Origin: Macrostomum lignano
Lineage: Eukaryota
Length of the DNA: 64,000 nt
Assembly (NCBI GenBank): GCA_002269645.1
Contig: NIVC01001580.1
Location: forward strand, 201,765-265,764
Direction: 5' to 3'
In this document: piece after piece, positions 3,421 to 62,460 of the stretch
Layout: each line of letters starts with the position of its first letter
How positions within the stretch are numbered: the first letter of the stretch is position 1
Notes under the pieces: generated by a model
Told to the model about the DNA's origin: nothing
Databases searched by the model: none
Seen by the model: only the letters and a program-made list of their open reading frames with translations
Made by a program: the position numbers and the translations under genes

Positions 3421-3435
3421 CTGAAGAGAGAGACT

Positions 3436-7424: not shown

Positions 7425-10306
<2,882 letters not shown>

Positions 10307-11261
10307 TAGCTGTCTGCCTGGGAAAATGAATGTAAAGAATACCAAGTTTATCCTTTTATTCACTTTTCACTAATCATTGAAATATTTGCGGCAAATTGCT
10401 TGACTTGACTTTATTTTTATTCAATGGAAAGAACTACATTGAGTAGACGCATGCTATCGGTATGCAACTGATTCAAGGACCGAGCTCCACTGAGAACAAA
10501 AGAGCCGCTGTGAAAAAGCAGACATTTACAAAAGTTTAAATTGAAAATTAAAGCAGAAAAGGATTCTGGTTCATATTCGGCGTTTGGGATAATTGATTTT
10601 AACATTAATAAGGAAAGTGCGGAATGAACTGGGAGCTGTCCATGAGCAGTAATAGTTTTAATTCGAACACAAATTGTTTGATGAGGCAGCAGTTGAGCCG
10701 GCACTCTCCGATGCAGCATAGCCACGAAGCGACGGGCAGCCCTTTTGGCGTCTGCGTGGGTCTTGGCACCGCAGATGCTCAGTTGCCCAGTAGGGTAGAG
10801 TAGGAGAGTCACTCTGGGAATCCGCATCCGCTTGATGAGCACCCGGGGCCAGACGGGCCGGTAGATCACATGAGCCATGCTGAGAGCCAGTTCCCGTAGA
10901 GGCAGCTGAGCGCCCCTGCCACCATCCAGTCTCAGATCTACTCCGCCAACCAGATTGGTCACTCTTAGGGCTGTAGCTGGTGGGCTCATTTCGATCGTCA
11001 ACTTCTTCACCAAATCTGCTTCTGCCAACTTTACTGCTCGTGTGCCACGGACACTGCTCGCTTCTTAAGTTGATGCAGAACTTTGGCTTAAGCCAACTGT
11101 AGTGCAGCAACGAATTTCTCACTGCACAGCCAGTATCTGAATCTTCAGTCGAGGGTGCTCCCAAATCTTCTAGGTTATAAACCTGTCTACCAAGCAGCTC
11201 AGTCAGGAAAATAGACTTCCTTTCCCCATTTGACCAGATCGGACCACTGGCAATGCTCAGA
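10307..11261. repeat. 955-bp direct duplication of Polinton DNA flanking the LINE (other copy = 651..1311 plus 7178..7471)
   Basis: Both segments begin TAGCTGTCTGCCTGGG and end CAATGCTCAGA. 661+294 = 955 bp after removing the CACTA and its TA duplication. Confidence 0.9.
10417..11028 (-). CDS. Divergent TATA-binding protein (TBP)-like factor encoded by the Polinton (probable start MSPPA at 10989)
   Basis: Two TBP repeats: RVTNLVGGVDL...YRPVWPRVLIKRMRIPRVTLLLYPTGQLSICGAKTHADAKRAARRF and ...AEYEPESFSALIF...LLFHSGSFVLSGARS align with canonical NIVSTVNL, YNPKRFAAVIMR, ALIFSSGKMVCTGAKS, YEPELFPGLIY, LIFVSGKVVLTGAK. AATAAA overlaps the stop. Confidence 0.9.
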   Translation of the reverse strand: MAEADLVKKLTIEMSPPATALRVTNLVGGVDLRLDGGRGAQLPLRELALSMAHVIYRPVWPRVLIKRMRIPRVTLLLYPTGQLSICGAKTHADAKRAARRFVAMLHRRVPAQLLPHQTICVRIKTITAHGQLPVHSALSLLMLKSIIPNAEYEPESFSALIFNLNFCKCLLFHSGSFVLSGARSLNQLHTDSMRLLNVVLSIE

Positions 11262-11509
11262 ATGTCTTCCGCCAGTTCCATGTACGGACGGGTTCCATCA
11301 TTCCACTTAAACTGGTGCAGACTCTTAGATAGCTGTCTGTAGTAAACTCGCATGTCAGGTGAGACTCTCTCCCATGGATACGGAGGTGCGTACACATGGT
11401 GAGCAATGTGGTAGCTCCCCGCTCTGATTTGAACAACTGCCAACTCCTTCACAACAAATTTTTTGCTTGTGCTGTTGCACGGGAATCCTTGGAAGTCAAT
11501 GTAGTTCAT
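10658..11509 (-). CDS. Polinton accessory protein, possible DnaQ/DEDD-like exonuclease fold; long tail overlaps the TBP-like ORF
   Basis: N-terminus YIDFQGF...FVVKELAV...APPYPW...HQFKWNDG..Y...IWSNG.RK...VYNLEDLG resembles a recurrent Polinton ORF family with an ExoI-like start; fold assignment is from memory. Confidence 0.5.
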   Translation of the reverse strand: MNYIDFQGFPCNSTSKKFVVKELAVVQIRAGSYHIAHHVYAPPYPWERVSPDMRVYYRQLSKSLHQFKWNDGTRPYMELAEDILSIASGPIWSNGERKSIFLTELLGRQVYNLEDLGAPSTEDSDTGCAVRNSLLHYSWLKPKFCINLRSEQCPWHTSSKVGRSRFGEEVDDRNEPTSYSPKSDQSGWRSRSETGWWQGRSAASTGTGSQHGSCDLPARLAPGAHQADADSQSDSPTLPYWATEHLRCQDPRRRQKGCPSLRGYAASESAGSTAASSNNLCSN

Positions 11510-11538
11510 GATGCAGCTTTCCTTCGAAAATTTCGGAG

Positions 11539-12231
11539 TCAGTCCACCTTCTTATATACTTTTCTGGCAGGCAATTTCAGCCAGGCTGTGTTGCTCCCGT
11601 ACCCCTTGACTAGACTCTCCTGTTCTTTCTCCAGTTCACCCCCTCTGCTGGTTGCCATTTTCTTCTTAACTGATTTACCAACAGCGGAAAGCGGAACATT
11701 AAGCTTTTTCTGCTGCAGAAAATCGATGAACTCGTTCCACCCAACTGGTTCACGCTCACATGGCGAATCCCTCACTGCGTGCTGAATCAAGTCCAGTATG
11801 TTTGAGGAAGGGATTGACGTGCCTGCGATTTCCACCTCCCCGTTTTCACAAACTCGAATCAGCTCTGGATTGGTGGACAGGATCGTCCACAGACTGCGAG
11901 CCCTGGTTTTGAATTTCTGTGGCACCGACTTGCTGATCTTCTCTTCCCAGGTGCTTATCTGGGGTGTCTCTGTTTTCATCAACTTGGCTTCAGTATTGCG
12001 TGCTCCTTCTTTTCCAGCGTGCTTGCGCTTGGCCAGCAAACTTTGCATTGCACTTTGGTACATGGCGGTTTTCACATCTTCTGGACAATCCTCGGCATAC
12101 AAGATGTCATCGCATTTCTTCTGAGCCTGCTTCAAGTCAGCTTCAGTGGTAGTCTCATTTGGCTTCAAATTCTGCATCAACATCTCATACTCTGCTTTAG
12201 GAATCAGAACCATTTCTGAAAATTTGTTCAT
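11539..12231 (-). CDS. Conserved Polinton hypothetical protein (230 aa)
   Basis: MVLIP start and motif ENGEVEIAG..IPSSNILDLI...PVGWNEF..FL...NVP..AVG seen in Polinton core hypothetical proteins; collinear in copy 2. Confidence 0.7.
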   Translation of the reverse strand: MNKFSEMVLIPKAEYEMLMQNLKPNETTTEADLKQAQKKCDDILYAEDCPEDVKTAMYQSAMQSLLAKRKHAGKEGARNTEAKLMKTETPQISTWEEKISKSVPQKFKTRARSLWTILSTNPELIRVCENGEVEIAGTSIPSSNILDLIQHAVRDSPCEREPVGWNEFIDFLQQKKLNVPLSAVGKSVKKKMATSRGGELEKEQESLVKGYGSNTAWLKLPARKVYKKVD

Positions 12232-12565
12232 TTTGCTTCTTCTTCTTTACCAGCTTAAGCAGAATCGGGAGTATTTTGATGAAGCCAGCCTTCAACAAGT
12301 CTGTCTTTCTTCTTTTGTGAGTAATTTTTCGAATTATCTCTTTTGACTTTGCAAGAACAGCTTTTTCATCGAGCGAAAACGATAGATTGTTTTGTAAGAG
12401 ATTATGGCAGGCCTCGACAAGAAAATAACGCACTTCTTTTGGACAATTTTTTATCAACAGCCGCTTGAAGCGCACGGTATATTTAGGTGACGCAAGAACC
12501 GCAAAAAGACTTGCATATGAATCAAGCACTTCCATTGCGATGAAAACAATAGCTGATAAAAACAA
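12197..12565 (-). CDS. Small basic Polinton conserved protein (putative virion core/membrane-interacting)
   Basis: LIKNCPKEV..FLVEACHNLLQNNL...IRKI...KK..LLKAGFIKILPILL with an amphipathic C-terminal helix; located between the ATPase and the 230-aa gene in both copies. Confidence 0.6.
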   Translation of the reverse strand: MFLSAIVFIAMEVLDSYASLFAVLASPKYTVRFKRLLIKNCPKEVRYFLVEACHNLLQNNLSFSLDEKAVLAKSKEIIRKITHKRRKTDLLKAGFIKILPILLKLVKKKKQNEQIFRNGSDS

Positions 12566-12576
12566 GCTTCACTTTC

Positions 12577-12955
12577 TTAAGCAAATACAAGATGGGGTCG
12601 CTGGTTGGGCAGAATTCTGGCCCAATTCTGGCAAAAAATTTCGCATTGAAGCAGAGTTTGAAGTTTCCTCTATTAAGTCATCGAAAACAACCAGGTCATT
12701 GGGCCTAAGTGCTGCCTCGATGTTGGTGGGAAATCCCTGGCGCAGCTGCACACCTAGGCTGTTCAGTTCTGCATGGCCTGCCTGTGAGATCCCATAGTAC
12801 CACAGAACTCTGCCAGGCTTCACATCAAACATGACGTCTCTGTACTGGATCAGGTGTTCGACAAAGGTTGTTTTTCCTGCATTGGTGGGCCCGCAGACAA
12901 TCATGCAGCTTCCCTGCCTGAGGCGGATATCGTAGCAAACTTGCTTTTCTCCCAT
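12577..12955 (-). pseudogene. Packaging ATPase (FtsK/A32-like) with a 276-bp internal deletion (copy 1)
   Basis: Walker A GPTNAGKTT and Walker B LVVFDD are present, but the TQN...SLN...KNPRD region present at 58819..59094 in copy 2 is missing. Confidence 0.85.
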
Positions 12956-12978
12956 GTTTAATGCATAAATATTAGAAA

Positions 12979-13491
12979 TCACGGACATCTTTTTCTTAAG
13001 TTGGCTTCAAACCTCTGTAAGATTCTATCATTCAAATGATTTTTCTCATTAGCATGCAAATGCTTCAAAATCCCCTCAAATGACCGATTGAACAGAAACT
13101 TTTGATAAGCAAAATAGATGCAAAACATTCCGCATTTATTAGAGTTAGCACATTGAACTCTGTTTATATTGCTTCGGAGCCAAAAGCCAGTTGTTTTAAT
13201 CTCTCGAAACAAATTATAAACCAAAGATAAAATTTCAGGTTCCCAGCCGAGGGAGTTGAACAACTCAATGCGATTTCCTTGCCCAACATAGCACACCACC
13301 CAGTGACCAAATGAGCCATTGTGCTGAAGTAGGACAAAAACAAACTTGTTTTCAAAGGAAATTGATGATCTAAATTTTCTTTTTACATTCAAGGGCAGAG
13401 AATTTTTATAGCGCAAATGTAAAGTAACTATGAGAAATTTTTGGTAAGGCAAAAATTTTCTGGCGAGATTAAGTAGTTGAATTGCATCCAT
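12979..13491 (-). CDS. Adenain-like cysteine maturation protease
   Basis: GHWV (His), ELFNSLG, VQCANSNKCGMFCIYF (Gln, Cys); canonical position next to MCP. Confidence 0.9.
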   Translation of the reverse strand: MDAIQLLNLARKFLPYQKFLIVTLHLRYKNSLPLNVKRKFRSSISFENKFVFVLLQHNGSFGHWVVCYVGQGNRIELFNSLGWEPEILSLVYNLFREIKTTGFWLRSNINRVQCANSNKCGMFCIYFAYQKFLFNRSFEGILKHLHANEKNHLNDRILQRFEANLRKRCP

Positions 13492-13496
13492 GTCAA

Positions 13497-14780
13497 TTAA
13501 GAGGAATAGTCCAGCAAAAGCTCTCGGTGCTTGGTGACCTCAATCAGCGAGTCATACAGGCACATAGCAATCAGGGACACCGCTTCATTCAGAGCCTGTT
13601 GGAAGCGAATCTCCAGCCGCAGGTTGCCCTCCTTCTGTCCGTACCACAGAGCCGCTCCCTCGGGTGTGAGATCGAATGCAAACACCGTGGTGTTGTTGGA
13701 GAAGAGCTGGTAGGGGATCCACGGGACCGAGTTTGTGTGGCTTGCAGATTGACAGCTTTTCAGGTAGTGCAAGTATTCTCTTACGAAGGAATTGTTTTCA
13801 GGTGTGAAGGCGCCGTGGCACACGGTTTCCCCACCTTTCTTTAGAGCCAATCGGCTAAGGTTGAAGCTCTGGAACTGTAACGGGCTCGCGTGATGATGAC
13901 CGTTGAATGCTCGGTGGCTCACGAAGGCCAGCATGATGAACTTCGGCAATTTTCCATGAGTGAATCCTTCAATGTTTTTTGACTGAATACCCTGGGGTAG
14001 GATGAAGTTCTGCATTTCAGTTCGCTCGATGGGATACAGTGCATTTTGGTTTGTCAGCCCCTGCTCATGGGCCAGGCTGATGTGGGGCATCACTTTGACT
14101 CGGCGAAGATGCAGAATGCTGTGAGAGATTTCCATTCGGTATGCCGCGTTGTTTGCATTCGGGGTTCTGATGGCAAAGGCCCCATCGCTGGGGACCAGTT
14201 TGATGTGCAGGTGCAGATTGCTTAGCAGAAACACTGGGCACTGGAAAACATCGCTGAAGAGCGGCCCCGCATACTCCATCCATTGGGATTCCCTGTGGCT
14301 CTCCGTGTGCTCTTCAGCTGCCGAGTTCGGCTCCAGGAAGCCAGCAGGGTAAAGTTTTAGTTGCTGGGCATCGGATGAGCTCATTAGTGCTTTGAAGTAC
14401 GCATGGTAGGGATAGAGCTGGTCTCCACCAGACACCACTCGCTGGTTAATGCTCACAATTACATCTGAGAAGGCTGTAGACAGAACAAAATTTTCTGGGT
14501 GCACGTCACTGTCTCTGCGCTCGGTGATGATGCCATCTCCATCTCGAACATCCTCCCTCAGCAAACCCCCATCCAGTCTCACAAGGCGGCAGCGAATATA
14601 AAGAAAAGAATTAAGCAGATCTGTATATTCATCGGCAGATTGGTGGCAGTCAAATTCAATGGGAGAGTTTGCAACAATGGAATTAACTGGGTGAATATCA
14701 ACATAAGTAGCTTTTTCAATGCAGGTTTGTAGAACGGGCGTCTTAAATAAATCAAGTCTGGGATTGAATCCGTAAGCCAT
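13497..14780 (-). CDS. Double jelly-roll major capsid protein (Polinton PY/hexon-like)
   Basis: PIEF...YTDL..SFLYIRCRL, FSDV.VSINQ..V....LYPY.AY, LPKFIMLAFV...AFNG....P..F..FNL, FAFDLTP, GNLRLEIRF..AL; 427 aa, intact. Confidence 0.9.
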   Translation of the reverse strand: MAYGFNPRLDLFKTPVLQTCIEKATYVDIHPVNSIVANSPIEFDCHQSADEYTDLLNSFLYIRCRLVRLDGGLLREDVRDGDGIITERRDSDVHPENFVLSTAFSDVIVSINQRVVSGGDQLYPYHAYFKALMSSSDAQQLKLYPAGFLEPNSAAEEHTESHRESQWMEYAGPLFSDVFQCPVFLLSNLHLHIKLVPSDGAFAIRTPNANNAAYRMEISHSILHLRRVKVMPHISLAHEQGLTNQNALYPIERTEMQNFILPQGIQSKNIEGFTHGKLPKFIMLAFVSHRAFNGHHHASPLQFQSFNLSRLALKKGGETVCHGAFTPENNSFVREYLHYLKSCQSASHTNSVPWIPYQLFSNNTTVFAFDLTPEGAALWYGQKEGNLRLEIRFQQALNEAVSLIAMCLYDSLIEVTKHRELLLDYSS

Positions 14781-14782
14781 GT

Positions 14783-15160
14783 CTATGACAGAGAGTCGAG
14801 CACGCGTTTCACAGTTTTCTTGCTGACTTTTTGCTTTCGCTTTCCTCCGCCTGCTCTATTCTTCTTTGCTTTCGTCTTCCTATTCTTAAGCTTTTTCCCA
14901 CTAGCCTTGCTCGACCTCTTACTGCGATTTCCACCAGTTGCCTTTCGGGTGCCCTTCTTTTTCTTCAATCGTTTCGGACTTGCTTCAGTATTTCTTTTGC
15001 GCCTGACGTTGCTAAGCGTCGAGGCTGATGATGATGATATAGCCGCTGGCGGAGGCTGGTATGTCATGATCCCTGGGAAGCTCCCACAGCCATAGAGTGC
15101 AGGCTTTTCGTGTCCTGTCCTCACCCCCGAATATTGCTGGATTAGCTGCTGGTAGTTCAT
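14783..15160 (-). CDS. Lys/Arg-rich protein, putative genome-condensing core protein
   Basis: MNYQQL start overlaps the mCP stop (ATGA); C-terminal half is extremely basic (RKRN...KKKKG...KKLKNRK); sits between mCP and MCP. Confidence 0.65.
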   Translation of the reverse strand: MNYQQLIQQYSGVRTGHEKPALYGCGSFPGIMTYQPPPAAISSSSASTLSNVRRKRNTEASPKRLKKKKGTRKATGGNRSKRSSKASGKKLKNRKTKAKKNRAGGGKRKQKVSKKTVKRVLDSLS

Positions 15161-15966
15161 TGAATGCGTTTCTCCTGAATTTGAACTGTAAGCAGAACAG
15201 GGCTGTGAGTCTGTGCAATCAGTGGGCAACCATAGATGTCCCGCAGCTGAACTCGAATGCTGTGAAGAAGACTGATTCGTTGAATCGGGAAGAATATTGT
15301 TTTCTTAAATATTTTTGTTTGATAGTTGCCCCATTCAATGCCAGCTTTCATTCCAACTGTTCTCAACAAGGAGCTCCAGTTGCAATTAGTTGACTCAACG
15401 ATACTGCAGTGCACATTGATTAAGCTGGTGCGCGGGCAGCCAATGCAATGCTCGGATACGCGGCTCCCTGGCTGGATTTTCACAGCCTGGTTTCCAAATC
15501 CCAGCCAATGCAGAATTTTACTAGATGGAAGAAACAGCTCTGCTCTCGCAGTGTTGTTGTGCACCACAGTTCGTGAGTTGCGGATTTCGAACTTCATACC
15601 AAATTCCCTGTTGCCACTACGCCCCATCAGGCCGGACTCATCAGCCTCCATCTCAGACTCCCTGTCACTCATTGCATCAAAGAACAGCGAATCAGAGTTG
15701 GCCAGCAGCTCATTCAGGCGCTCCACCAGCTCCTCCACTCTAGCAAAGCGTCCGGGTTGAAGAACCAGGGCCTCATGCTCTCTTCCATCTGAGACAGTGA
15801 AGCAGTAAGGCTCGTCAACATTGAACCATGCAGCAGGCAGATGGATTTCAGCCAGACCTGCCTCATAGTCCACATTTCGATCCAAGTAAATAGGTGAAGG
15901 CAGGTAAAAATTAAAGTCACTAGGAGTACCTTCAGCATGCTCACTGTTAATCAAAATAGTTCGCAT
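15157..15966 (-). CDS. Minor capsid protein (penton-like, Polinton PX)
   Basis: NS....TPSDF.F.LP.PI.L....EAGL.EI.LP..WFNV start and INVHCSIV...LLRTV...FFPI...SIRVQL.DI.G end. Start 15966 because the 15975 ATG is not conserved in copy 2. Confidence 0.85.
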   Translation of the reverse strand: MRTILINSEHAEGTPSDFNFYLPSPIYLDRNVDYEAGLAEIHLPAAWFNVDEPYCFTVSDGREHEALVLQPGRFARVEELVERLNELLANSDSLFFDAMSDRESEMEADESGLMGRSGNREFGMKFEIRNSRTVVHNNTARAELFLPSSKILHWLGFGNQAVKIQPGSRVSEHCIGCPRTSLINVHCSIVESTNCNWSSLLRTVGMKAGIEWGNYQTKIFKKTIFFPIQRISLLHSIRVQLRDIYGCPLIAQTHSPVLLTVQIQEKRIQ

Positions 15967-16003
15967 TATAATCATAAACTACATGATGAGGGCTGTGCCA
16001 AAG

Positions 16004-17074
16004 CTAAACCTTTCTTAAGTCTTTTTCATCCACCCAGCCAGTCGAGTCGTAGCCCGCCCATTTCACCAGATAGCGAATTTTTCCCTTCCGCTTCTCCGTT
16101 TTCAGGATCTTCTCAATCACATACAGCCGCTGTGAGTCCGGGACAGCCTGCAGCTCGTGCTCATGGAAGAGTCCTCGAATCTCTTGCCCCCGCATGTCTT
16201 TAATCTTGTACATGTAGGGATAATGTTTTGGGGCTCTGCTCACCACGGTGTACACTTCCTCACTCCAGCTCGCTTTGTATCCCTTTTTGAATATCCGTGG
16301 AGCATTGGAAATTCTCACTGACTGGTTTTCAGCGAACTTAGGCTTCTTTAATTTTTCTAGAGTCTCGACTGCTTTTCCATCGTACAGGTTCATCCACACT
16401 TCAGATTCATTCTCTTTGCAGACACTAGTGGGTGCCATTTTGATGCTTCTGTGGTAGGTATTGTTGTAGGATTTTACCAGCTTAGGCAGCACATCAAGCC
16501 AGTGCAGTGTGCTCTTGTAGGTGAAGTAGCGCCACATTCTACTTTTCAGAGTTCGATTCCATCGCTCAATGACAGCTGCCTTCTGCTCGCTGTTAGTTGG
16601 GAAAGCCAGAATCCCTCTGTCAATGCAGTATTGACGGAAAGTGGAGTTGATAAATTCCTTCCCCTGATCTGTGCGAACTGTGCGTGGCTGGCGCTTTGAA
16701 CTTCTCAGTATGCTCTCGAATGCTGACTTCACTTCTGCAGCAGATTTATTTTTCAGTGCCTTGGCCCAAGCACATTTTGAGAGCACGTCAATGCATGTGA
16801 GAATATATTTGTAGCCTTTATTATGCTTTGCGAATGGAATCATTTCCACTAAGTCAAGTTCCCACTGATCATCGATTGCGCGCACTATGATTGGGGCCCT
16901 TGGATATCGCCTCCTAGCTGGCTTGTGCAGAGTGTGCACTGGCTGCTCGCTGAGCCACTGCTCAATGCTCTTTGCAGATATTCGATCACCTCTTTGCCTC
17001 ACTTCATGCAGCAACTTTGAGGCACAAGAAAAACTAGCCGGTTGCTCAGGTTTCAAATAAATTTTCTCCATCAT
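16004..17074 (-). CDS. int: Retroviral-like (rve) DDE integrase with C-terminal chromodomain
   Basis: WELDLVEM, VRTDQGKEF, KAAVIERWNRTLK catalytic D-D-E; chromodomain YVIEKIL...RYLVKWAGYDSTGWV. Confidence 0.95.
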   Translation of the reverse strand: MMEKIYLKPEQPASFSCASKLLHEVRQRGDRISAKSIEQWLSEQPVHTLHKPARRRYPRAPIIVRAIDDQWELDLVEMIPFAKHNKGYKYILTCIDVLSKCAWAKALKNKSAAEVKSAFESILRSSKRQPRTVRTDQGKEFINSTFRQYCIDRGILAFPTNSEQKAAVIERWNRTLKSRMWRYFTYKSTLHWLDVLPKLVKSYNNTYHRSIKMAPTSVCKENESEVWMNLYDGKAVETLEKLKKPKFAENQSVRISNAPRIFKKGYKASWSEEVYTVVSRAPKHYPYMYKIKDMRGQEIRGLFHEHELQAVPDSQRLYVIEKILKTEKRKGKIRYLVKWAGYDSTGWVDEKDLRKV

Positions 17075-17394
17075 GGGTTTATCAAGATACGTGCCTATCC
17101 ACCTGCTCTAGCTGTACAGTATTTTTTCTTAAGTAGAAATTTATATTCCAATTAAATGATAGAGAAACGAGTGGCAAATTAATTTATTACTGTCAGATTG
17201 AAACCTCTAACATCGTAACAGTCGGTGTATTTTCCGAAAGCAAACAATCCATAAAAACGAACACTAAAACACTCGCACACCAGCATTTCAGAAATAGCAG
17301 AGATAAAAAACAGCATAGTGCCGTCAGGCTGGATAATCATGTGCAAGCTAAAAGTAATTTAGTTAGTCCAATGCATTCAAAGCATTCTAGCTGT

Positions 17395-18171
17395 TCAGTT
17401 ATCAAAGCGAACATTGGGCTGCAGCCTCATCGCGTCCTGCCGACGAAGTTGAAATGGCAGCTTTCGCTTCCTGCTGCTGCTGCTCACCGTCGAAGCCGCT
17501 GCATGCGCCCTGAACTGATACCACACCGGATCTTCCTCAAGGTTGGTGTCCCGCTGCGGAAGCAGTCCAGCATCAGAATCAACCGAAGGTATCGGTGTGG
17601 ATGTGATTGGCTCAGTCACAATGCGCGGCCTTGTGGGCGAGCTAACGTCCTCGTCATCAGCATGATCTCCGCCCTCATCAGTCTCCATTATGGGCTTCGT
17701 GTCCTGGTCAGCCTCCAACTTGAGCTTCTTGTCCTCTTCCTCCTCTTCCTCATCAGACTCCAGCTCGTACTGCATTGTGTTCCTCAAGGGAGCCACCAGC
17801 TGACCGTCGATCCAGGAGGCGATTTTCCAGAGCTTCTGCCACAGCGGCGGAGTCAGTGGTACGGCGTTTCGTCTCAAAAACTCCTCGCAGCAATCTTCCG
17901 GCAGCCGTTTGAGCCAAATGATGCCGCCTTTGACTTCCACAAACTTATCGAAGCCGAGTTTCACGACCTTGGGCTCGTTGTTGCGTGCAGAAATCACAAG
18001 TGAGCGTTTCACCTCCTTCAATTTCTTCCATTGGTGAACATTCAGGTTGAATCCTGGGACGCCTGGCTTCAGACTTGCCGTGCTGCCGTGTCGGTAAAAC
18101 TTGCGAATAGCGATAAATTTTTGTCCTTCAAACTCCTGGACTTGTGCCTTATAGCCTTCACAGATGTCCAT
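17395..18171 (-). CDS. PC4/Sub1-like ssDNA-binding or coactivator protein with two tandem PC4-like repeats and an acidic tail
   Basis: AQVQEFEGQKFIAIRKFY...LKPGVPGFNLNVHQWKKLKE matches the PC4 pattern V.VREFKGK..IDIREYW...MKPG.KGISL..EQW..LK; second degenerate repeat LGFDKFVEV...IWLKR...NAVPLTPPLWQKL; ESDEEEEEDKK. Confidence 0.8.
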   Translation of the reverse strand: MDICEGYKAQVQEFEGQKFIAIRKFYRHGSTASLKPGVPGFNLNVHQWKKLKEVKRSLVISARNNEPKVVKLGFDKFVEVKGGIIWLKRLPEDCCEEFLRRNAVPLTPPLWQKLWKIASWIDGQLVAPLRNTMQYELESDEEEEEEDKKLKLEADQDTKPIMETDEGGDHADDEDVSSPTRPRIVTEPITSTPIPSVDSDAGLLPQRDTNLEEDPVWYQFRAHAAASTVSSSSRKRKLPFQLRRQDAMRLQPNVRFDN

Positions 18172-18275
18172 TTTCCTTTCGCAATTGAAAACTCACAAAA
18201 GTTAAAAGCTGAGGAAAATTTCGGATGAAATTTTGGATTTGAAAAATTGAGAATTCTTTCTTGTCAATTTCGGGG

Positions 18276-18284
18276 CTTATATAC
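18276..18284 (-). promoter_or_regulatory. TATA box (TATATAAG) upstream of the PC4-like gene
   Basis: About 105 bp upstream of ATG 18171; the same octamer precedes the left-end ORF (47490) and both host fibrinogen-domain genes. Confidence 0.5.
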
Positions 18285-18377
18285 CCTCGACCGAACCACC
18301 CCAAACCACCCATCCCACTCCGGGCTCTGTGATTGGCTCTTTCGCAAACATTATTTCCAATTACATAGATTAACATC

Positions 18378-18597
18378 TTATCTCTGCAGTGTTAACCACC
18401 CCCAATGCAAAGAGATAGGCCGCCTCTCCTCCTATCTCTGCAGTGTTAACCACCCCCAATGCAAAGAGATAGGCCGCCTCTCCTCCTATCTCTGCAGTGT
18501 TAACCACCCCCAATGCAAAGAGATAGGCCGCCTCTCCTCCTATCTCTGCAGTGTTAACCATCTCCAGTGTAAAGAAATAGGCCGCCTCTTCTCCTAT
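18378..18597. repeat. 54-bp tandem repeat (about 4 copies) internal to the right TIR
   Basis: Unit TATCTCTGCAGTGTTAACCACCCCCAATGCAAAGAGATAGGCCGCCTCTCCTCC; related to the 47-bp TIR repeat. Confidence 0.9.
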
Positions 18598-18612
18598 CAC
18601 TCCTGTGTTAAG

Positions 18613-18952
18613 CAGAGATAGAGCTCATATCTCTGCAGTGCTTAGCCGTCCCCAATGCACAGAGATAGAGCTCATATCTCTGCAGTGCTTAGCCGTCCCC
18701 AATGCACAGAGATAGAGCTCATATCTCTGCAGTGCTTAGCCGTCCCCAATGCACAGAGATAGAGCTCATATCTCTGCAGTGCTTAGCCGTCCCCAATGCA
18801 CAGAGATAGAGCTCATATCTCTGCAGTGCTTAGCCGTCCCCAATGCACAGAGATAGGGCTCATATCTCCGCAGTGTATTTTTCCCTATACATTTGCATTG
18901 CCGCCTATCTCGCCAGTGCTAGTGCGGCAGTATCATAATTCGCCCTACTACT
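18613..18952. repeat. Right terminal inverted repeat of Polinton copy 1, including about 5.5 copies of a 47-bp repeat
   Basis: Reverse complement of 46401 onward, with one mismatch seen in the unique terminal part; unit CAGAGATAGAGCTCATATCTCTGCAGTGCTTAGCCGTCCCCAATGCA. Confidence 0.93.
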
Positions 18953-46400: not shown

Positions 46401-47140
46401 AGTAGTAGGGCGAATTATGATACTGCCGCACTAGCACTGGCGAGATAGGCGGCAATGCAAATGTACAGGGAAAAATACACTGCGGAGATATGAGCCCTAT
46501 CTCTGTGCATTGGGGACGGCTAAGCACTGCAGAGATATGAGCTCTATCTCTGTGCATTGGGGACGGCTAAGCACTGCAGAGATATGAGCTCTATCTCTGT
46601 GCATTGGGGACGGCTAAGCACTGCAGAGATATGAGCTCTATCTCTGTGCATTGGGGACGGCTAAGCACTGCAGAGATATGAGCTCTATCTCTGTGCATTG
46701 GGGACGGCTAAGCACTGCAGAGATATGAGCTCTATCTCTGTGCATTGGGACGGCTAAGCACTGCAGAGATATGAGCTCTATCTCTGTGCATTGGGGACGG
46801 CTAAGCACTGCAGAGATATGAGCTCTATCTCTGTGCATTGGGGACGGCTAAGCACTGCAGAGATATGAGCTCTATCTCTGTGCATTGGGGACGGCTAAGC
46901 ACTGCAGAGATATGAGCTCTATCTCTGTGCATTGGGGACGGCTAAGCACTGCAGAGATATGAGCTCTATCTCTGTGCATTGGGGACGGCTAAGCACTGCA
47001 GAGATATGAGCTCTATCTCTGTGCATTGGGGACGGCTAAGCACTGCAGAGATATGAGCTCTATCTCTGTGCATTGGGGACGGCTAAGCACTGCAGAGATA
47101 TGAGCTCTATCTCTGTGCATTGGGGACGGCTAAGCACTGC
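46401..47140. repeat. Left terminal inverted repeat with 14 copies of the 47-bp repeat
   Basis: Reverse complement of 18613..18952; units at about 46484, 46531 ... 47094. Confidence 0.93.
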
Positions 47141-47489
47141 GGAGATAGAGGCGATTCATGATACTGCCGCACTAGCACTGGCGAGATAGGCGGCAAAAAG
47201 GATATAGGAAAAATACACTGCGGAGAGGATCCTATCTCTGTGCATTGGGAACGGCTAAACATTGCAGAGATAAGAGGGGTGGCCAATCTCTGTGCTCTGT
47301 GTTAGGGTAAGGTTATAAAGTTTTACAACTGCACAGAGGACGGCTGGTGTTGCTTACCTGGATAAGGGGACGGGGGGAATACACTAATTACAGCCGGTGG
47401 CCTCTATAACGGTAAAGTAATTATTACCTGAGCATGGCTGGATGTTCATATACGATATGATAAGGAGAGGGCATGCATGTACAAATTAC

Positions 47490-47497
47490 TATATAAG
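47490..47497 (+). promoter_or_regulatory. TATA box (TATATAAG) upstream of the left-end ORF
   Basis: About 100 bp upstream of ATG 47599. Confidence 0.5.
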
Positions 47498-52577: not shown

Positions 52578-55500
52578 ATGGTCCGAATAAGAGATGGGGA
52601 GATGCTTGCCGAAGAGGACAGATGGATAAGCTGTAAAATGCAGGCCCTAGACCTAGGTGGTGAAGCAGGCCGTTTAAACAACTGGTTGATTGAGCAGGAG
52701 CAGGAGTTGGAGAGGATCTGTAGTATGATTAATACGAACGGCAGTGGCTGGACAATTAAACAAATTAATTTTCTAGACATCAACCTTGCCAGGTACAATC
52801 CAATTCGATTTCGCCAGGGCAGAGCCGTTAGATTCAATCTTCCTGCCAGTTTGAAGAACAAAAAGGCTGTTATCAATCCACCGAGCACAGGCAAAGACTG
52901 TTTCCTGTACGCCTGTCTCGCTGCACTGCACAGCGCCGATCCGAAAGTTCAGAAATCGCCCAACAGAATATCCTCTTACGATGAATGGTTGCGTGAGCTG
53001 GACTTTGCAGAAATCTCCATGCCAGTGAGTGTCGCTGATATCGATCGCGTCGAGTCTAACAATCCAGGAATTTGCATTTCTGCGTTCTCTTGGCAGCAGG
53101 GCAGTGTGACTCTTCTCCGTCGCCGCAAGCATGAGTCAGATGACCGAAGACACCTCATGCTTTTGCTAGTTAAAGACAGCTACGGATCGGAGCACTGGTG
53201 TGCAATTACTAATTTTGACAGGTTAATGAACAGTCGTAATGGTCCCGCCATGAGGAAGTGGTGCACGAAATGTTTAACATCATTTTATAGCAACGAGAGG
53301 CTTCAAGAGCACAGGAACGAATGCAGCATTACTGCAGAAAATCCTGTCAAAGAAACGCTTCCAGTTCCAGGACAGAATGAAATAAAGTTCCGAAACTGTC
53401 AAAACACTGTCAGTCCACCATTCGTTGCCTATGCCGACCTGGAAGCCATTTTGCGAGCGAACACAGACCCTGCTAACCTGATCTCAAAGCATGAACCATG
53501 TGCAGCAGCTTTTCTTGCAGTGCCTCGTGAAGGCATGACAGGACCTCCGCTTAGGCCAGAAGGAGACATGTACAAGGTCTTTTGCAATGCGGACCCTGAT
53601 GAGTGTATCCTTGGTTTTCTCAAATCTCTTGAAAGCCTGGCTCAGGATATATTTCACTGGAACCAGAAGCATAGCCACCAGCCGGCTGACCGATCATCCG
53701 CGACCGTCATGGATGATTTCAATTCTGCTGAGGTATGTCACTACTGCAAGAAGAACTTTAAAAGTTCTACAGATAAACATTTTGACCACGATCATTTAAA
53801 TGGACAGTACAAAGGTGCAGCATGTCAAGAATGCAACCTGCGAGCACAGCTCCGACGCCGGTTTCTGCCCCTGGTTTTTCACAACTTAGGCGGCTACGAC
53901 CTTCATCTTCTACTTTCCACTGCGCTTGGGAGCATGAAAAATTGGAAACTTAGTGTTGTTCCGCAATCATCCGAGCGATACTTGTCACTAAGGGCGGAAT
54001 TCCCTGTTGCAAGTTACGTAAAGAACGGAAAAGTTGTGCCAATCATGTTTACAATTCAGTTCATCGACTCGCTCTGCTTTTTGAAGGGAAGTTTGTCCAA
54101 TTTGTTTGCTAATCTTCCCGAAGCTGAATGCAAGCTGACAATGCAAATGCTTGAGTCAAGACCACATCTTTCAAGAGAGCTACTTCGAAAAAAAGGGATT
54201 TTCCCATATGATTACCTCACAGGATTTGAGATTCTCGAGCAGTCGGTTTTGCCACCTAAAGATGCTTTTTTTAATCGACTTTCCGATAGGGGAATTTCCG
54301 ACGACGACTACAATAGAGCAAGAGCGGCATGGGCGGCATTTCAATGCAAAAGTTTGAAGGATTATATGCTCGCCTATCTTGAAATGGATGTAAGGCAGCT
54401 GGCTGACATTTTCGAGACATTCCGACAGGCCAGTCTGAAAGAGGACGGATTGGATCCGGTACACTACTTTACTACTCCTGGTTTGTCTTACGACTCAGCT
54501 CTAAAGTCGACTGGAGTGGTTCTAGAGCAGCTGACTGATGCTGACATGTATCATCTGTTTGAGAAGGGAATACGAGGAGGCATGTCCTTCATTAATGTGC
54601 ATTGCGTCAAAGGTAATAATCCTAGCTTGCCAGGTTATGATGATCAGCAAGAGAGTGTAAGCCTCATGCCGATCGATATGAACAACTTGTATGGCTTTGC
54701 CCTGTCGCTTCCGCTTCCATGCAGGGAATTCAGGTGGGTACCGGAACAGGAAATCCAGTTCTGGGACTCCAATCGGTTTCTGTCACTCAATCCAGAAGCC
54801 GAGATCGCCTACCTTGTTCAACTCGATCTAGAATACCCAGCTGAGATTCACGATTCGACTCAGGAGTTACCGTTTGCACCTGAAAAATCAAAACCACAGC
54901 CAGATCAATTCTCGCCGTACATGGCCGAACTATGGAAAGAGATTGCTGAACAGCGAACTGGCAATGCTGAAGCTAAGTTTCAAGCAACGGAGAAGCTTCT
55001 ACTCACCTGTACCGACAAGGATTCTTACGTAGTTCACAGCACCGTTTTAAGATTTTACCTGCAACACGGAATGCGGATCAAGTGCGTCAAAAAAATGATT
55101 TCGTTCAAGCAGGAAAATATTTTCGCGCCGTACATTGCCAGCAACAATGAAAAAAGAGCTTTGGCAACTTCCGAGTTTGCTAAGGATTTTTACAAATTGA
55201 AAAACAATTCTCTCTTTGGAAAAACTATGGAGAACGTTCGAAAAAGATGCGATGTTCGAATTTGCACTAACCAGACTCAAGCAGAAACTTGCGCCTCTCG
55301 ACCAAACTGTGCCGCATTCTCGATTATCAATGAGTCGTTGAGCATTTTTCAGCTCAAAAAAGATAAAGTCACGCTTGACAAGGCCATTTTCGTTGGCCAG
55401 GCAGTTCTCGATCTCTCTAAGATGGCCATGTACAGCCTACTATATGACAGGCTCCGACCGCTGTTCTGTCATTCAGACGGTTCCAGAGACATGATGCTTT

Positions 55501-56036
55501 GCGGAGGTGATACTGACTCATTTTTTCTAGCTTTCAAGAATCATGATTTAACATCGGAGGTAATCCCGAAGCTTAGAGAGGAAAAAATACTTGACACATC
55601 CAACTATTCTCGAGACCATCCGCATTTCTCTGAAGAGTTAAAAGGAAAGCTGGGCTGCGTTAAAGATGAATCTGCTGGTGGAATTTACCAGGAGTGGATT
55701 CTTTTGCGTCCAAAACTTTATTCGTTTCTCCCTGCCGAGAATTCGAGTGCAAAGATCAAGAAAACTGCCAAAGGCGTGAAGCAGTCAGTAGTAAGACAGC
55801 AAATTTCGCATGCGAACTATGTCGACGCGTTCGAGTCCAAGCAAGAGCAGATGGTTGCCATGACAGCGATTGTTTCCAAGAAACACGAAATCTTCACGTC
55901 GGTCATGGAGAAAAGAAGCCTATCGGTGTGGGAGGATAAGCGAGTGTGGCTTAGCAGTAATCGAAGCCTGCCCTACGGACACTATGCGCTGACGCCCGCA
56001 TCCCACGATCAGCTGAAGCGCATCCGACTGGTCTAG
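52578..56036 (+). CDS. pPolB: Protein-primed family B DNA polymerase with terminal-protein/vOTU region, Zn finger and EndoVII-like insert (true start probably upstream of a frameshift at about 52557)
   Basis: SGW; DCFLYA...EHWCAI; CTKC..H; ExoI YADLEA; CHYC...DHDHLNG...AACQECN; ExoII FHNLGGYD; KGIFPYDY; ExoIII YLEMDV; Pol motifs DMNNLYG, KLKNNSLFGK, GDTDS. Confidence 0.97.
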   Translation: MVRIRDGEMLAEEDRWISCKMQALDLGGEAGRLNNWLIEQEQELERICSMINTNGSGWTIKQINFLDINLARYNPIRFRQGRAVRFNLPASLKNKKAVINPPSTGKDCFLYACLAALHSADPKVQKSPNRISSYDEWLRELDFAEISMPVSVADIDRVESNNPGICISAFSWQQGSVTLLRRRKHESDDRRHLMLLLVKDSYGSEHWCAITNFDRLMNSRNGPAMRKWCTKCLTSFYSNERLQEHRNECSITAENPVKETLPVPGQNEIKFRNCQNTVSPPFVAYADLEAILRANTDPANLISKHEPCAAAFLAVPREGMTGPPLRPEGDMYKVFCNADPDECILGFLKSLESLAQDIFHWNQKHSHQPADRSSATVMDDFNSAEVCHYCKKNFKSSTDKHFDHDHLNGQYKGAACQECNLRAQLRRRFLPLVFHNLGGYDLHLLLSTALGSMKNWKLSVVPQSSERYLSLRAEFPVASYVKNGKVVPIMFTIQFIDSLCFLKGSLSNLFANLPEAECKLTMQMLESRPHLSRELLRKKGIFPYDYLTGFEILEQSVLPPKDAFFNRLSDRGISDDDYNRARAAWAAFQCKSLKDYMLAYLEMDVRQLADIFETFRQASLKEDGLDPVHYFTTPGLSYDSALKSTGVVLEQLTDADMYHLFEKGIRGGMSFINVHCVKGNNPSLPGYDDQQESVSLMPIDMNNLYGFALSLPLPCREFRWVPEQEIQFWDSNRFLSLNPEAEIAYLVQLDLEYPAEIHDSTQELPFAPEKSKPQPDQFSPYMAELWKEIAEQRTGNAEAKFQATEKLLLTCTDKDSYVVHSTVLRFYLQHGMRIKCVKKMISFKQENIFAPYIASNNEKRALATSEFAKDFYKLKNNSLFGKTMENVRKRCDVRICTNQTQAETCASRPNCAAFSIINESLSIFQLKKDKVTLDKAIFVGQAVLDLSKMAMYSLLYDRLRPLFCHSDGSRDMMLCGGDTDSFFLAFKNHDLTSEVIPKLREEKILDTSNYSRDHPHFSEELKGKLGCVKDESAGGIYQEWILLRPKLYSFLPAENSSAKIKKTAKGVKQSVVRQQISHANYVDAFESKQEQMVAMTAIVSKKHEIFTSVMEKRSLSVWEDKRVWLSSNRSLPYGHYALTPASHDQLKRIRLV

Positions 56037-56616: not shown

Positions 56617-57228
56617 TTATTCAATGGAAAGAACTACATTGAGTAGACGCATGCTATCGGTATGCAACTGATTCAAGGACCGAGCTCCACTGAGAACAAA
56701 AGAGCCGCTGTGAAAAAGCAGACATTTACAAAAGTTTAAATTGAAAATTAAAGCAGAAAAGGATTCTGGTTCATATTCGGCGTTTGGGATAATTGATTTT
56801 AACATTAATAAGGAAAGTGCGGAATGAACTGGGAGCTGTCCATGAGCAGTAATAGTTTTAATTCGAACACAAATTGTTTGATGAGGCAGCAGTTGAGCCG
56901 GCACTCTCCGATGCAGCATAGCCACGAAGCGACGGGCAGCCCTTTTGGCGTCTGCGTGGGTCTTGGCACCGCAGATGCTCAGTTGCCCAGTAGGGTAGAG
57001 TAGGAGAGTCACTCTGGGAATCCGCATCCGCTTGATGAGCACCCGGGGCCAGACGGGCCGGTAGATCACATGAGCCATGCTGAGAGCCAGTTCCCGTAGA
57101 GGCAGCTGAGCGCCCCTGCCACCATCCAGTCTCAGATCTACTCCGCCAACCAGATTGGTCACTCTTAGGGCTGTAGCTGGTGGGCTCATTTCGATCGTCA
57201 ACTTCTTCACCAAATCTGCTTCTGCCAA
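56617..57228 (-). CDS. TBP-like factor (copy 2, intact; protein identical to 10417..11028)
   Basis: Same 203-aa translation in the ORF track. Confidence 0.9.
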   Translation of the reverse strand: MAEADLVKKLTIEMSPPATALRVTNLVGGVDLRLDGGRGAQLPLRELALSMAHVIYRPVWPRVLIKRMRIPRVTLLLYPTGQLSICGAKTHADAKRAARRFVAMLHRRVPAQLLPHQTICVRIKTITAHGQLPVHSALSLLMLKSIIPNAEYEPESFSALIFNLNFCKCLLFHSGSFVLSGARSLNQLHTDSMRLLNVVLSIE

Positions 57229-57708
57229 CTTTACTGCTCGTGTGCCACGGACACTGCTCGCTTCTTAAGTTGATGCAGAACTTTGGCTTAAGCCAACTGT
57301 AGTGCAGCAACGAATTTCTCACTGCACAGCCAGTATCTGAATCTTCAGTCGAGGGTGCTCCCAAATCTTCTAGGTTATAAACCTGTCTTCCAAGCAGCTC
57401 AGTCAGAAAAATCGACTTCCTTTCCCCATTTGACCAGATCGGACCACTGGCAATGCTCAGAATGTCTTCCGCCAGTTCCATGTACGGACGGGTTCCATCA
57501 TTCCACTTAAACTGGTGCAGACTCTTAGATAGCTGTCTGTAGTAAACTCGCATGTCAGGTGAGACTCTCTCCCATGGATACGGAGGTGCGTACACATGGT
57601 GAGCAATGTGGTAGCTCCCCGCTCTGATTTGAACAACTGCCAACTCCTTCACAACAAATTTTTTGCTTGTGCTGTTGCACGGAATCCTTGGAAGTCAATG
57701 TAGTTCAT
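56858..57708 (-). pseudogene. Exonuclease-like accessory gene, copy 2 (1-bp deletion near 57680)
   Basis: Collinear with 10658..11509; GGG reduced to GG. Confidence 0.6.
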
Positions 57709-57737
57709 GATGCAGCTTTCCTTCGAAAATTTCGGAG

Positions 57738-58428
57738 TCAGTCCACCTTCTTATATACTTTTCTGGCAGGCAGTTTCAGCCAGGCTGTGTTGCTCCCGTA
57801 CCCCTTGACTAGACTCTCCTGTTCTTTCTCCAGTTCACCCCTCTGCTGGTTGCCATTTTCTTCTTAACTGATTTACCAATAGCGGAAAGCGGAACATTAA
57901 GCTTTTTCTGCTGCAGAAAATCGATGAACTCGTTCCACCCAACTGGTTCACGCTCACATGGCGAATCCCTCACTGCGTGCTGAATCAAGTCCAGTATGTT
58001 TGAGGAAGGGATTGACGTGCCTGCGATTTCCACCTCCCCGTTTTCACAAACTCGAATCAGCTCTGGATTGGTGGACAGGATCGTCCACAGACTGCGAGCC
58101 CTGGTTTTGAATTTCTGTGGCACCGACTTGCTGATCTTCTCTTCCCAGGTGTTATCTGGGGTGTCTCTGTTTTCATCAACTTGGCTTCAGTATTGCGTGC
58201 TCCTTCTTTTCCAGCGTGCTTGCGCTTGGCCAGCAAACTTTGCATTGCACTTTGGTACATGGCGGTTTTCACATCTTCTGGACAATCCTCGGCATACAAG
58301 ATGTCATCGCATTTCTTCTGAGCCTGCTTCAAGTCAGCTTCAGTGGTAGTCTCATTTGGCTTCAAATTCTGCATCAACATCTCATACTCTGCTTTAGGAA
58401 TCAGAACCATTTCTGAAAATTTGTTCAT
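57738..58428 (-). pseudogene. 230-aa conserved Polinton gene, copy 2 (frameshifts near 57841 and 58152)
   Basis: Collinear with 11539..12231. Confidence 0.75.
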
Positions 58429-58761
58429 TTTGCTTCTTCTTCTTTACCAGCTTAAGCAGAATCGGGAGTATTTTGATGAAGCCAGCCTTCAACAAGTCTG
58501 TCTTTCTTCTTTTGTGAGTAATTTTTCGAATTATCTCTTTTGACTTTGCAAGAACAGCTTTTTCATCGAGCGAAAACGATAGATTGTTTTGTAAGAGATT
58601 ATGGCAGGCCTCGACAAGAAAATAACGCACTTCTTTTGGACAATTTTTTATCAACAGCCGCTTGAAGCGCACGGTATATTTAGGTGACGCAAGAACCGCA
58701 AAAAACTTGCATGTGAATCAAGCACTTCCATAGCGATGAAAACAATAGCTGATAAAAACAA
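58394..58761 (-). pseudogene. Small basic conserved gene, copy 2 (1-bp deletion near 58705)
   Basis: Collinear with 12197..12565. Confidence 0.6.
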
Positions 58762-58772
58762 GCTTCACTTTC

Positions 58773-59417
58773 TTAAGCAAATACAAGATGGGGTCGCTGG
58801 TTGGGCAAATTCTGGCCCGCACTCGCAGCTCATCGGGAGTTGATGGGTGAAAATCCAGGAACAGGTAGCTCCCCTGCCCTGCGCGGTCACGTGCTTGAAC
58901 ACTGACAGCAGAAAGCCGGGCTTCTCTGTAAAGCACTGCCTGCCCAGTGCTGCAATCTGCAGCTGGTCTCTGGGGTTTTTCAAGATAGCTAAATACATTA
59001 CATTCAAGCTCATTGTTCGCGACTCTTTTCCCTTGAAAAATATATTCTGAGTCAGCATCACCAAAAGCACGGCAAGTGATGTGCGATTCCTGTGAAAAAA
59101 TTTCGCATTGAAGCAGAGTTTGAAGTTTCCTCTATTAAGTCATCGAAAACAACCAGGTCATTGGGCCTAAGTGCTGCCTCGATGTTGGTGGGAAATCCCT
59201 GGCGCAGCTGCACACCTAGGCTGCTCAGTTCTGCATGGCCTGCCTGTGAGATCCCATAGTACCACAGAACTCTGCCAGGCTTCACATCAAACATGACGTC
59301 TCTGTACTGGATCAGGTGTTTGACAAAGGTTGTTTTTCCTGCATTGGTGGGCCCGCAGACAATCATGCAGCTTCCCTGCCTGAGGCGGATATCGTAGCAA
59401 ACTTGCTTTTCTCCCAT
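58773..59417 (-). pseudogene. Packaging ATPase, full length but frameshifted (copy 2)
   Basis: Walker A/B, then LTQNIFFKG...SLNVMYLAILKNPRD and SYLFLDFHPSTPDELRVRA split over three frames. Confidence 0.85.
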
Positions 59418-59440
59418 GTTTAATGCATAAATATTAGAAA

Positions 59441-59952
59441 TCACGGACATCTTTTTCTTAAGTTGGCTTCAAACCTCTGTAAGATTCTATCATTCAAATG
59501 ATTTTTTCATTAGCATGCAAATGCTTCAAAATCCCCTCAAATGACCGATTGAACAGAAACTTTTGATAAGCAAAATAGATGCAAAACATTCCGCATTTAT
59601 TAGAGTTAGCACATTGAACTCTGTTTATATTGCTTCGGAGCCAAAAGCCAGTTGTTTTAATCTCTCGAAACAAATTATAAACCAAAGATAAAATTTCAGG
59701 TTCCCAGCCGAGGGAGTTGAACAACTCAATGCGATTTCCTTGCCCAACATAGCACACCACCCAGTGACCAAATGAGCCATTGTGCTGAAGTAGGACAAAA
59801 ACAAACTTGTTTTCAAAGGAAATTGATGATCTAAATTTTCTTTTTACATTCAAGGGCAGAGAATTTTTATAGCGCAAATGTAAAGTAACTATGAGAAATT
59901 TTTGGTAAGGCAAAAATTTTCTGGCGAGATTAAGTAGTTGAATTGCATCCAT
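59441..59952 (-). pseudogene. Adenain-like protease, copy 2 (1-bp deletion near 59506 after the catalytic residues)
   Basis: Collinear with 12979..13491. Confidence 0.85.
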
Positions 59953-59957
59953 GTCAA

Positions 59958-61239: not shown

Positions 61240-61241
61240 GT

Positions 61242-61619
61242 CTATGACAGAGAGTCGAGCACGCGTTTCACAGTTTTCTTGCTGACTTTTTGCTTTCGCT
61301 TTCCTCCGCCTGCTCTATTCTTCTTTGCTTTCGTCTTCCTATTCTTAAGCTTTTTCCCACTAGCCTTGCTCGACCTCTTACTGCGATTTCCACCAGTTGC
61401 CTTTCGGGTGCCCTTCTTTTTCTTCAATCGTTTCGGACTTGCTTCAGTATTTCTTTTGCGCCTGACGTTGCTAAGCGTCGAGGCTGATGATGATGATATA
61501 GCCGCTGGCGGAGGCTGGTATGTCATGATCCCTGGGAAGCTCCCACAGCCATAGAGTGCAGGCTTTTCGTGTCCTGTCCTCACCCCCGAATATTGCTGGA
61601 TTAGCTGCTGGTAGTTCAT
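61242..61619 (-). CDS. Lys/Arg-rich putative core protein, copy 2
   Basis: Same translation as 14783..15160. Confidence 0.65.
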   Translation of the reverse strand: MNYQQLIQQYSGVRTGHEKPALYGCGSFPGIMTYQPPPAAISSSSASTLSNVRRKRNTEASPKRLKKKKGTRKATGGNRSKRSSKASGKKLKNRKTKAKKNRAGGGKRKQKVSKKTVKRVLDSLS

Positions 61620-62424: not shown

Positions 62425-62460
62425 TATAATGATAAACTCAAGATGAGGGATGTGCCAAAG

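Follow-up and report, generated by a model that had tools for sequence, protein, structure and literature searches.

An altered TBP-like protein and a candidate late promoter box in Maverick elements of Macrostomum lignano

Maverick/Polinton elements encode capsids and no RNA polymerase, which poses the question of how transcription of their structural genes is timed. Here we address this question at one locus of Macrostomum lignano, in a window of 64,000 nt (positions 201,765 to 265,764 of contig NIVC01001580.1, assembly GCA_002269645.1; coordinates below are those of the window). Positions 10417-18952 are the right arm of a multicopy Maverick/Polinton. A preliminary description of the locus had proposed a captured RNA polymerase II (Pol II) initiation kit, made of a TATA-binding protein (TBP)-like and a PC4-like protein, and an early/late switch from host-driven terminal genes to a structural block with almost no room for promoters. 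Both genes are real (Pfam TBP, E 7.9e-25; Pfam PC4, PF02229, E 5.5e-8). The sequences support a two-tier layout of a different kind, in which the terminal genes have canonical TATA boxes and most genes of the block a different, conserved box, YWTAAGAA. We lean slightly towards the view that the Maverick's own altered TBP binds this box and would bring in host TFIIB and Pol II, setting off a late tier of structural and packaging genes. Such a pairing of a box with a small protein offers a testable answer to the question of timing.

Read inwards from the terminal repeat on the minus strand, the arm carries the PC4-like gene, an integrase with a chromodomain, a probable minor capsid gene, a small basic open reading frame (ORF), the major capsid gene, an adenain-type protease, an ATPase, conserved ORFs of 112 and 230 aa, an exonuclease-like ORF and the TBP-like gene. 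The block from the integrase to the TBP-like gene is indeed packed: neighbouring genes overlap or are separated by no more than 33 nt. Contrary to the preliminary description, it does contain a series of candidate promoters. YWTAAGAA stands 12-149 nt upstream of 8 of its 10 genes, in most cases within the gene ahead, and is absent from the antisense strand of this arm. Ahead of the integrase (16004..17074) the box is intergenic (17126..17133), and that of the minor capsid gene (15157..15975) lies inside the 3' end of the integrase (16012..16019). The basic ORF (14783..15160) is preceded by TTTAAGAA (15302..15309), the major capsid gene (13497..14780) by a box at 14883..14890 and the 112-aa ORF (12197..12535) by one at 12574..12581. 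The box of the packaging ATPase (12569..12988) is at 12993..13000, 12 nt from the first Met and 45 nt from the second. Ahead of the exonuclease-like ORF (10658..11509) we find the composite TATATAAGAA (11549..11558), in which canonical TATATAAG, at 11558(-) and 49 nt from the ORF, overlaps a variant box; the preliminary description had overlooked this TATATAAG. The TBP-like gene (10417..10989), the last of the block, has CTTAAGAA 80 nt ahead of its ATG, inside the exonuclease-like ORF (11062..11069). The two genes without a box of their own abut or overlap their upstream neighbours: the protease (12979..13491) starts 5 nt past the capsid stop, and the 230-aa ORF (11539..12231) overlaps the 112-aa ORF.

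Is this arrangement more than a by-product of codon usage? By eye, CTTAAG occurs in the arm solely just upstream of start codons. All 7 sense sites of YTTAAGAA are at most 160 nt from a start, although such windows make up just 21% of the arm, and there are 0 antisense sites; none of 500 synonymous-codon shuffles matched this pattern, and the same held in all 8 copies tested. Because the motif had first been picked by eye, the test was rerun de novo and set against whichever word did best in each shuffle. TTAAGAA then matched 8 of the 10 genes and nowhere else (reached by 0/300 shuffles), and the corresponding run in subfamily C219, with 50-85% protein identity, matched 7 genes (0/150). Family B has 44% capsid identity to family A, the family of the copies considered so far, and a different gene order. 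Here ATAAGAA marked 5 genes and TAAGAA 6, with none elsewhere (0/150 shuffles each), and the top words lay at distances homologous to those of the family A boxes. Motif discovery upstream of the structural genes, a check suggested in the preliminary description, thus returned YWTAAGAA as the top de novo motif in both families.

Of the 144 sense sites of YWTAAGAA across 19 family A copies, 140 lie within 170 nt of a start; a further 13 sites are antisense. The box is kept in 19/19 copies at the minor capsid, basic, ATPase, exonuclease-like and TBP-like genes, in 18/19 at the 112-aa gene, in 16/19 at the integrase and in 11/19 at the major capsid gene; the canonical half of the composite ahead of the exonuclease-like ORF is present in 10/19. 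The strongest cases are the integrase box, kept although its intergenic flanks are unrelated between subfamilies, and family B. The identical 8-mer stands at the minor capsid site in family B, and ahead of the family B TBP-like gene TATAAAAG occupies the same codon register as CTTAAGAA of family A, which suggests an element in TATA position. Canonical TATA is found directly ahead of this gene in family B.

The terminal genes have canonical boxes. Canonical TATATAAG lies 112 nt ahead of the ATG of the PC4-like gene (17395..18171, minus strand) at 18276..18283, read from 18283(-); 19/19 copies have TATA here and 0/19 the variant box. At the opposite end, TATATAAG at 47490..47497 on the plus strand is 109 nt ahead of the left-end ORF (47599-48894). 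This ORF had been taken for the left end of the same copy and belongs to a second one, starting at 46401. Canonical TATA is found within ~100 nt of the left-end ORF in 6 of 10 left arms, which contain a single YTTAAGAA in total. The report of the same box at neighbouring host genes also holds, with TATATAAG at 24453(-) and 34557(-) ahead of two paralogous non-element ORFs. The TATAAAT described ahead of the integrase is present at 17145-17139(-) and is not conserved, a strict canonical TATA being found in 2/19 relatives versus the variant box in 16/19. Host TBP is likely to drive the terminal genes. Of the earlier two-tier idea, then, the canonical terminal tier stands, and the promoter-poor block gives way to one with its own conserved box.

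What could read this box? The TBP-like protein, of 190 aa, comprises a complete two-repeat TBP saddle core (AlphaFold2 pLDDT 91; TM ~0.8 to solved TBPs). Its gene is under purifying selection: in the non-overlapped half dS is near saturation, and no finite dN/dS value for the 36 pairs from 9 copies exceeds 0.27. In a numbering that we take to be that of yeast TBP, anchored on the host protein, it keeps N69, V71, L114, E186/E188, F190 and F207 of host TBP and differs at F99 (Pro), F116 (Tyr), V122 (Ser), T124 (Cys), N159 (Thr), V161 (Thr) and P191 (Ser); the V203/L205 region was left out for its ambiguous alignment, with a 2-residue deletion. From the set that marks a canonical TBP, four intercalating Phe, two Asn and Pro191, two Phe and one Asn are kept. 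All 20 element-type sequences aligned share the second Glu of the acidic stirrup and both C-terminal Phe; all of them lack the first N-terminal Phe and have Tyr for the second and Ser or Thr for one Val. The acidic stirrup (E140/E142), the predicted TFIIB contact, is invariant in families A and B and Asp/Glu in clade II, a third lineage.

Families A and B, in which the first letter of the box can be C, have lost the equivalent of Pro191; clade II, with a candidate box TATAAG that begins with T, retains it. This Pro is reported to impose T on the first TATA position, so its loss fits the C-starting boxes; according to the available text of the same source, G at position 6 is acceptable to wild-type TBP, so this G alone needs no new TBP (PMC1636458). 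In a quick tree the element proteins sit on long branches outside the cellular TBP/TLF set. As the tree was quick and came with long-branch warnings, no donor is inferred. The TBP-like gene, last in the block and itself behind a variant box, is therefore not a simple early gene.

Two further observations concern the TBP-like gene. The frame of the exonuclease-like ORF, for which we assume a DEDD exonuclease and Pfam has no match, stays open over the first 110 TBP-like codons in the window (10658-10989) and over the first 110-129 in intact copies of families A and B, with modest support (P ~0.015-0.03 per family). Third positions vary at 0.22-0.28 in the overlap vs 0.39-0.40 in the capsid gene (3 distant pairs), and the region may therefore be dual-coding. 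A mosaic breakpoint lies near TBP-like codon 112 (window ~10650): subfamilies that are near-identical in the structural block and first TBP repeat show saturated synonymous divergence in the second repeat, and their polymerases are just 44-54% identical. The two TBP repeats would thus travel on different exchanged modules.

A TBP-like gene occurs in all three Maverick lineages examined in this genome. Clade II, with capsids 28-31% identical, has a more divergent one in 6/7 loci, with the changes at F116, V122, N159 and V161 in common with families A and B. In 3/3 clade II families TTATAAG recurs ahead of the minor capsid gene and the next gene, and a TAAG core is common to all three lineages. 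It is possible, and we put this at a little short of even, that box and TBP co-evolve by lineage (CTTAAGAA/TTTAAGAA, YATAAGAA, TATAAGCA) as a one-protein early-to-late switch in animal Mavericks, with a minimal TBP of new specificity reading a private TATA variant that lies within coding DNA; a late strategy of the herpesvirus type would then have arisen independently of herpesviruses. No outside locus was confirmed in viral and metagenome contigs scanned with the TBP-like and capsid alignments.

In clade II elements (L091, L087, L096, L092; 17.5-19 kb) the TBP-like gene adjoins a deoxynucleoside kinase gene (Pfam dNK) and the polymerase, and these elements also carry a dUTPase-like ORF and an upstream beta-rich ORF. 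The latter may replace the PC4-like protein as a single-stranded DNA (ssDNA)-binding protein. It has ESM Atlas matches of 0.87-0.88 to clusters of nucleocytoplasmic large DNA viruses, with DUF2738, DUF5871 and Pox_I3 at 10-31% of members; these are weak leads (model pLDDT 52, Foldseek best E 0.009, VIA best Z 3.7).

In the mechanism we propose, host TBP would transcribe the terminal genes, and probably the polymerase gene too, from canonical TATA boxes. The first TBP-like protein would be supplied by leaky transcription or read-through, with the composite TATATAAGAA ahead of the exonuclease-like ORF as one possible source. It would then activate its own gene through the box, in a feedback, together with the integrase, minor capsid, basic, major capsid, ATPase and 112-aa genes. 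The box-less protease and 230-aa genes would ride on the upstream transcript.

Several points weigh against this proposal. The protease and 230-aa genes have no box in any of the 19 copies, and the major capsid gene lacks one in 8/19. These 19 copies also amount to few independent comparisons, because they are related and their boxes lie mostly in coding DNA at homologous sites. At the ATPase and the family B minor capsid gene only 9-13 nt separate the box from the first ATG, a distance too short for a -30 element if translation starts there rather than at the next Met, and no initiator-like signal was seen 20-42 nt downstream of the box. In clade II, TTATAAG does not rise above the shuffles in any family (54, 53 and 100 of 100). 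Host TBP might read TATAAGAA, and with one intercalating Phe lost, the element's protein could also be a weak DNA binder. Among the scanned contigs and loci no TBP-less Maverick was found as a control. Finally, the contigs of 8 sequencing runs, none on record as RNA, give flat cover that includes intergenic DNA. They contain no splice joint, the sole joint, 49120-51098, being the empty site of a nested transposon; that the polymerase is without cover in 2/4 runs carries no weight.

How do other explanations fare? Host TBP/TFIID or TLF may read the boxes, with the TBP-like protein serving as a decoy on TFIIB or TBP regulators that dampens or redirects host transcription. The genome has both TBP and a TLF-type gene, G at position 6 is tolerated by wild-type TBP (PMC1636458), and a protein with its acidic stirrup intact, in which an intercalating Phe and a number of DNA contacts are gone, would suit such a role. 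We consider this scenario rather unlikely nevertheless: CTTAAGAA differs from TATA at 4/8 positions, the terminal genes keep canonical TATA, which makes the variant specific to one tier, and the substituted residues are invariant across very divergent elements, a pattern that a new specificity fits better than decay. The box could also act at the RNA level, as a spliced-leader trans-splice acceptor or in re-initiation, resolving one polycistron that starts before the integrase. The host trans-splices and has operons, and its top acceptor motif is given as YTNCAG in the available text of PMC8629364; YTTAAG of family A agrees with it at 5/6 letters, the box-to-ATG distances are suitably short, and poly(A)-like hexamers at 17188 and 10421/10415 flank the block. 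We give little credence to this alternative, in view of the -3 position, which is A and not C at all sites, the A at position 2 in family B, the 12 nt upstream, only ~40% pyrimidine, and the canonical TATA that replaces the box in register in family B. Recognition of YWTAAGAA by the element's own TBP remains the reading that we prefer.

That the TBP-like and PC4-like proteins form a joint captured Pol II initiation kit, as originally proposed, we now regard as quite improbable. The two genes do co-occur, in 20/23 family A loci (18 of the 23 were picked because both genes were on one contig) and in 6/7 family B loci, despite differing gene order. The PC4-like protein, however, has similarity (also to 1pcf and 4usg) limited to the C-terminal ssDNA-binding domain of PC4, at element residues 9-54. 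Coactivation by PC4 needs its N-terminal Ser/acidic, Lys-rich region; in the element the domain starts at about residue 8, whereas host PC4 has ~80 residues ahead of its domain. The domain is followed by a second conserved block, which may be a degenerate repeat, and an acidic tail, and it found no relatives in a large protein search. In clade II, moreover, no PC4 match falls below E 0.025 in any of the 7 loci, of which 3 are complete end to end, and the kit is unsupported because the TBP-like gene is present there without a detectable PC4. The available text of PMC7549692 links the phage T5 homologue of PC4 to replication. On balance, the element's protein is more likely an ssDNA-binding protein for protein-primed replication than a coactivator. 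TAAG resembles the baculovirus late motif. As a late initiator of this type, it could serve the RNA polymerase of a helper virus, like the giant-virus promoters on which virophage late genes depend, and its presence in all three lineages would agree with this. We deem this highly improbable, given that selection acts on a TBP-like protein encoded by the element itself, that the flanking letters vary by lineage in step with TBP residues and that nothing in the analysis indicates a helper.

The identity of the element is well marked. A second copy, 99.5% identical, extends from 46401 and provides the left arm and the protein-primed DNA polymerase B (52578..56036, plus strand; Pfam DNA_pol_B_2, E 2e-12); it comprises a left terminal inverted repeat (TIR; 46401..47150) and a structural block on the minus strand (56617..64000) with several frame breaks. 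The polymerase gene and left-end ORF of copy 1 sit upstream of the window (locus L011). The integrase is retrovirus-like (Pfam rve, E 3e-13, and Chromo), the protease matches Peptidase_C5 above the cut-off, and the ATPase ORF has a Walker A motif and weak P-loop Pfam matches; in copy 1 its gene misses ~270 nt from the middle, at 12623/12633. A genome-wide search with Pfam Peptidase_C5 gave no match, even for the controls. The major capsid protein, without a sequence match in Pfam or PDB, is likely a double jelly-roll (ESM Atlas top match 0.98; PF21738, double jelly-roll-like, in 24% of cluster members). Its presumed minor counterpart, a single jelly-roll in Polintons, we assign from position and size, and the basic ORF may be core-protein-like. 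The right TIR (18376..18952) contains 54- and 47-nt tandem units and ends in CTACTACT. Elements have AG...CT ends and 6-bp target-site duplications, exact in the 10 of 37 loci where these could be read; 13 of the 37 have no TIR pair in the available stretch, and the copy ending at 18952 shows no 6-bp target duplication with its upstream TIR. The TBP-like and PC4-like genes have at least 150 matches each in the genome, and full-length relatives measure 16-17.4 kb.

Both copies in the window have been invaded. In copy 1, the 5' end of a TBP-like gene is interrupted by a 5.9-kb element that has inverted ends and contains a 671-aa ORF. There is also a long interspersed nuclear element with reverse transcriptase and RNase H, behind which lies a ~950-nt duplication of element DNA; the nested insertions span 1312-7175 and 7472-10306. 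The left arm of copy 2 contains a 1977-nt transposon with inverted ends (49120-51098), the site of which is empty in other copies. An occurrence of TATATAAG at 50656 was rejected as a Maverick box, as it is located in this transposon. A 159-aa repeat-rich ORF (51758-52577) may be the first exon of the polymerase, with an unconfirmed GTAAG donor-like site near 52165. Beyond the right TIR, at a distance of 22 nt, starts an ORF with a SAP domain (18974-19303; Pfam SAP, E 1e-7). The paralogous ORFs at 23178-24350 and 33654-34412 have signal-peptide-like N-termini, TATA boxes and no Pfam match, and belong to a host segment that is duplicated and contains 23-nt tandem arrays. Family B copies (L066-L069, L013-L018) mostly have ~10-12 kb between their TIRs and a truncated polymerase, and are for this reason likely non-autonomous; their integrase has an apparent spliceosomal intron (L068:3230-3360) with GT...AG ends, a branch-like CTAAC and a T tract.

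How does this system compare with known ones? In gene content the element resembles the adintoviruses of Starrett et al. 2021 (PMC8502044; preprint 10.1101/697771), with a protein-primed DNA polymerase B, an rve integrase with chromodomain, adenain, ATPase, capsid genes, TIRs and 6-bp duplications. In that paper the legend of Fig. 5 names, with no function given, a gene 'similar to TATA binding proteins' that belongs to some MELD virus or related element, and the word 'promoter' is absent from the main text as available. In the accessible parts of the Polinton literature, no description of a promoter box or a late switch was found in the contexts of TBP, PC4 or TAAG; within the same limits, PMC11161782 does not mention TBP or PC4, PMC5730564 does not mention Mavericks, and 'PC4' in PMC11662393 is a cluster label. 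With cellular TBP and TLF/TRF2 the TBP-like protein shares its fold, the first Asn, the acidic stirrup and the C-terminal Phe pair. Unlike cellular TBP it has Pro/Tyr for the N-terminal Phe pair and Thr for the second Asn, and in families A and B lacks Pro191; unlike host TLF it keeps the Phe190 equivalent. The PC4-like protein shares the ssDNA-binding domain of PC4/Sub1 and of the phage T5 homologue and, in contrast to host PC4, has no N-terminal Ser/acidic, Lys-rich region.

If our proposal is true, endogenous Mavericks would hold a regulated virus-like programme, and natural TBP variants with shifted DNA specificity would provide altered-specificity TBP-promoter pairs. Transgenesis and 5'-end libraries are available in this host, as described in the accessible part of PMC5730564. 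The closest parallel is the late transcription of beta- and gamma-herpesviruses, in which the TBP mimics ORF24, BcRF1 and UL87 act on TATT boxes (PMC12529657, PMC4893493, in their available text). In those viruses the viral TBP binds its box, and late expression, which depends on replication, requires it. Both systems lack a viral RNA polymerase, have canonical TATA at early genes and a non-canonical box at structural genes, and encode a TBP-fold protein with altered DNA-facing residues. The boxes themselves differ, YWTAAGAA in the Maverick and TATTWAA in herpesviruses; the parallel is drawn at the level of sequence features, and no common origin is claimed. ORF24 is large and multidomain, is one of six proteins in a complex, contacts Pol II directly and is without the TFIIB-binding acidic residues, as far as the available text of PMC12529657 describes it. 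The Maverick protein, by comparison, is a bare 190-aa core that has no large Pol II-binding N-terminal domain and no identified partner complex, and it keeps the acidic residues of the stirrup. It may thus represent a minimal counterpart of the six-protein herpesvirus late complex.

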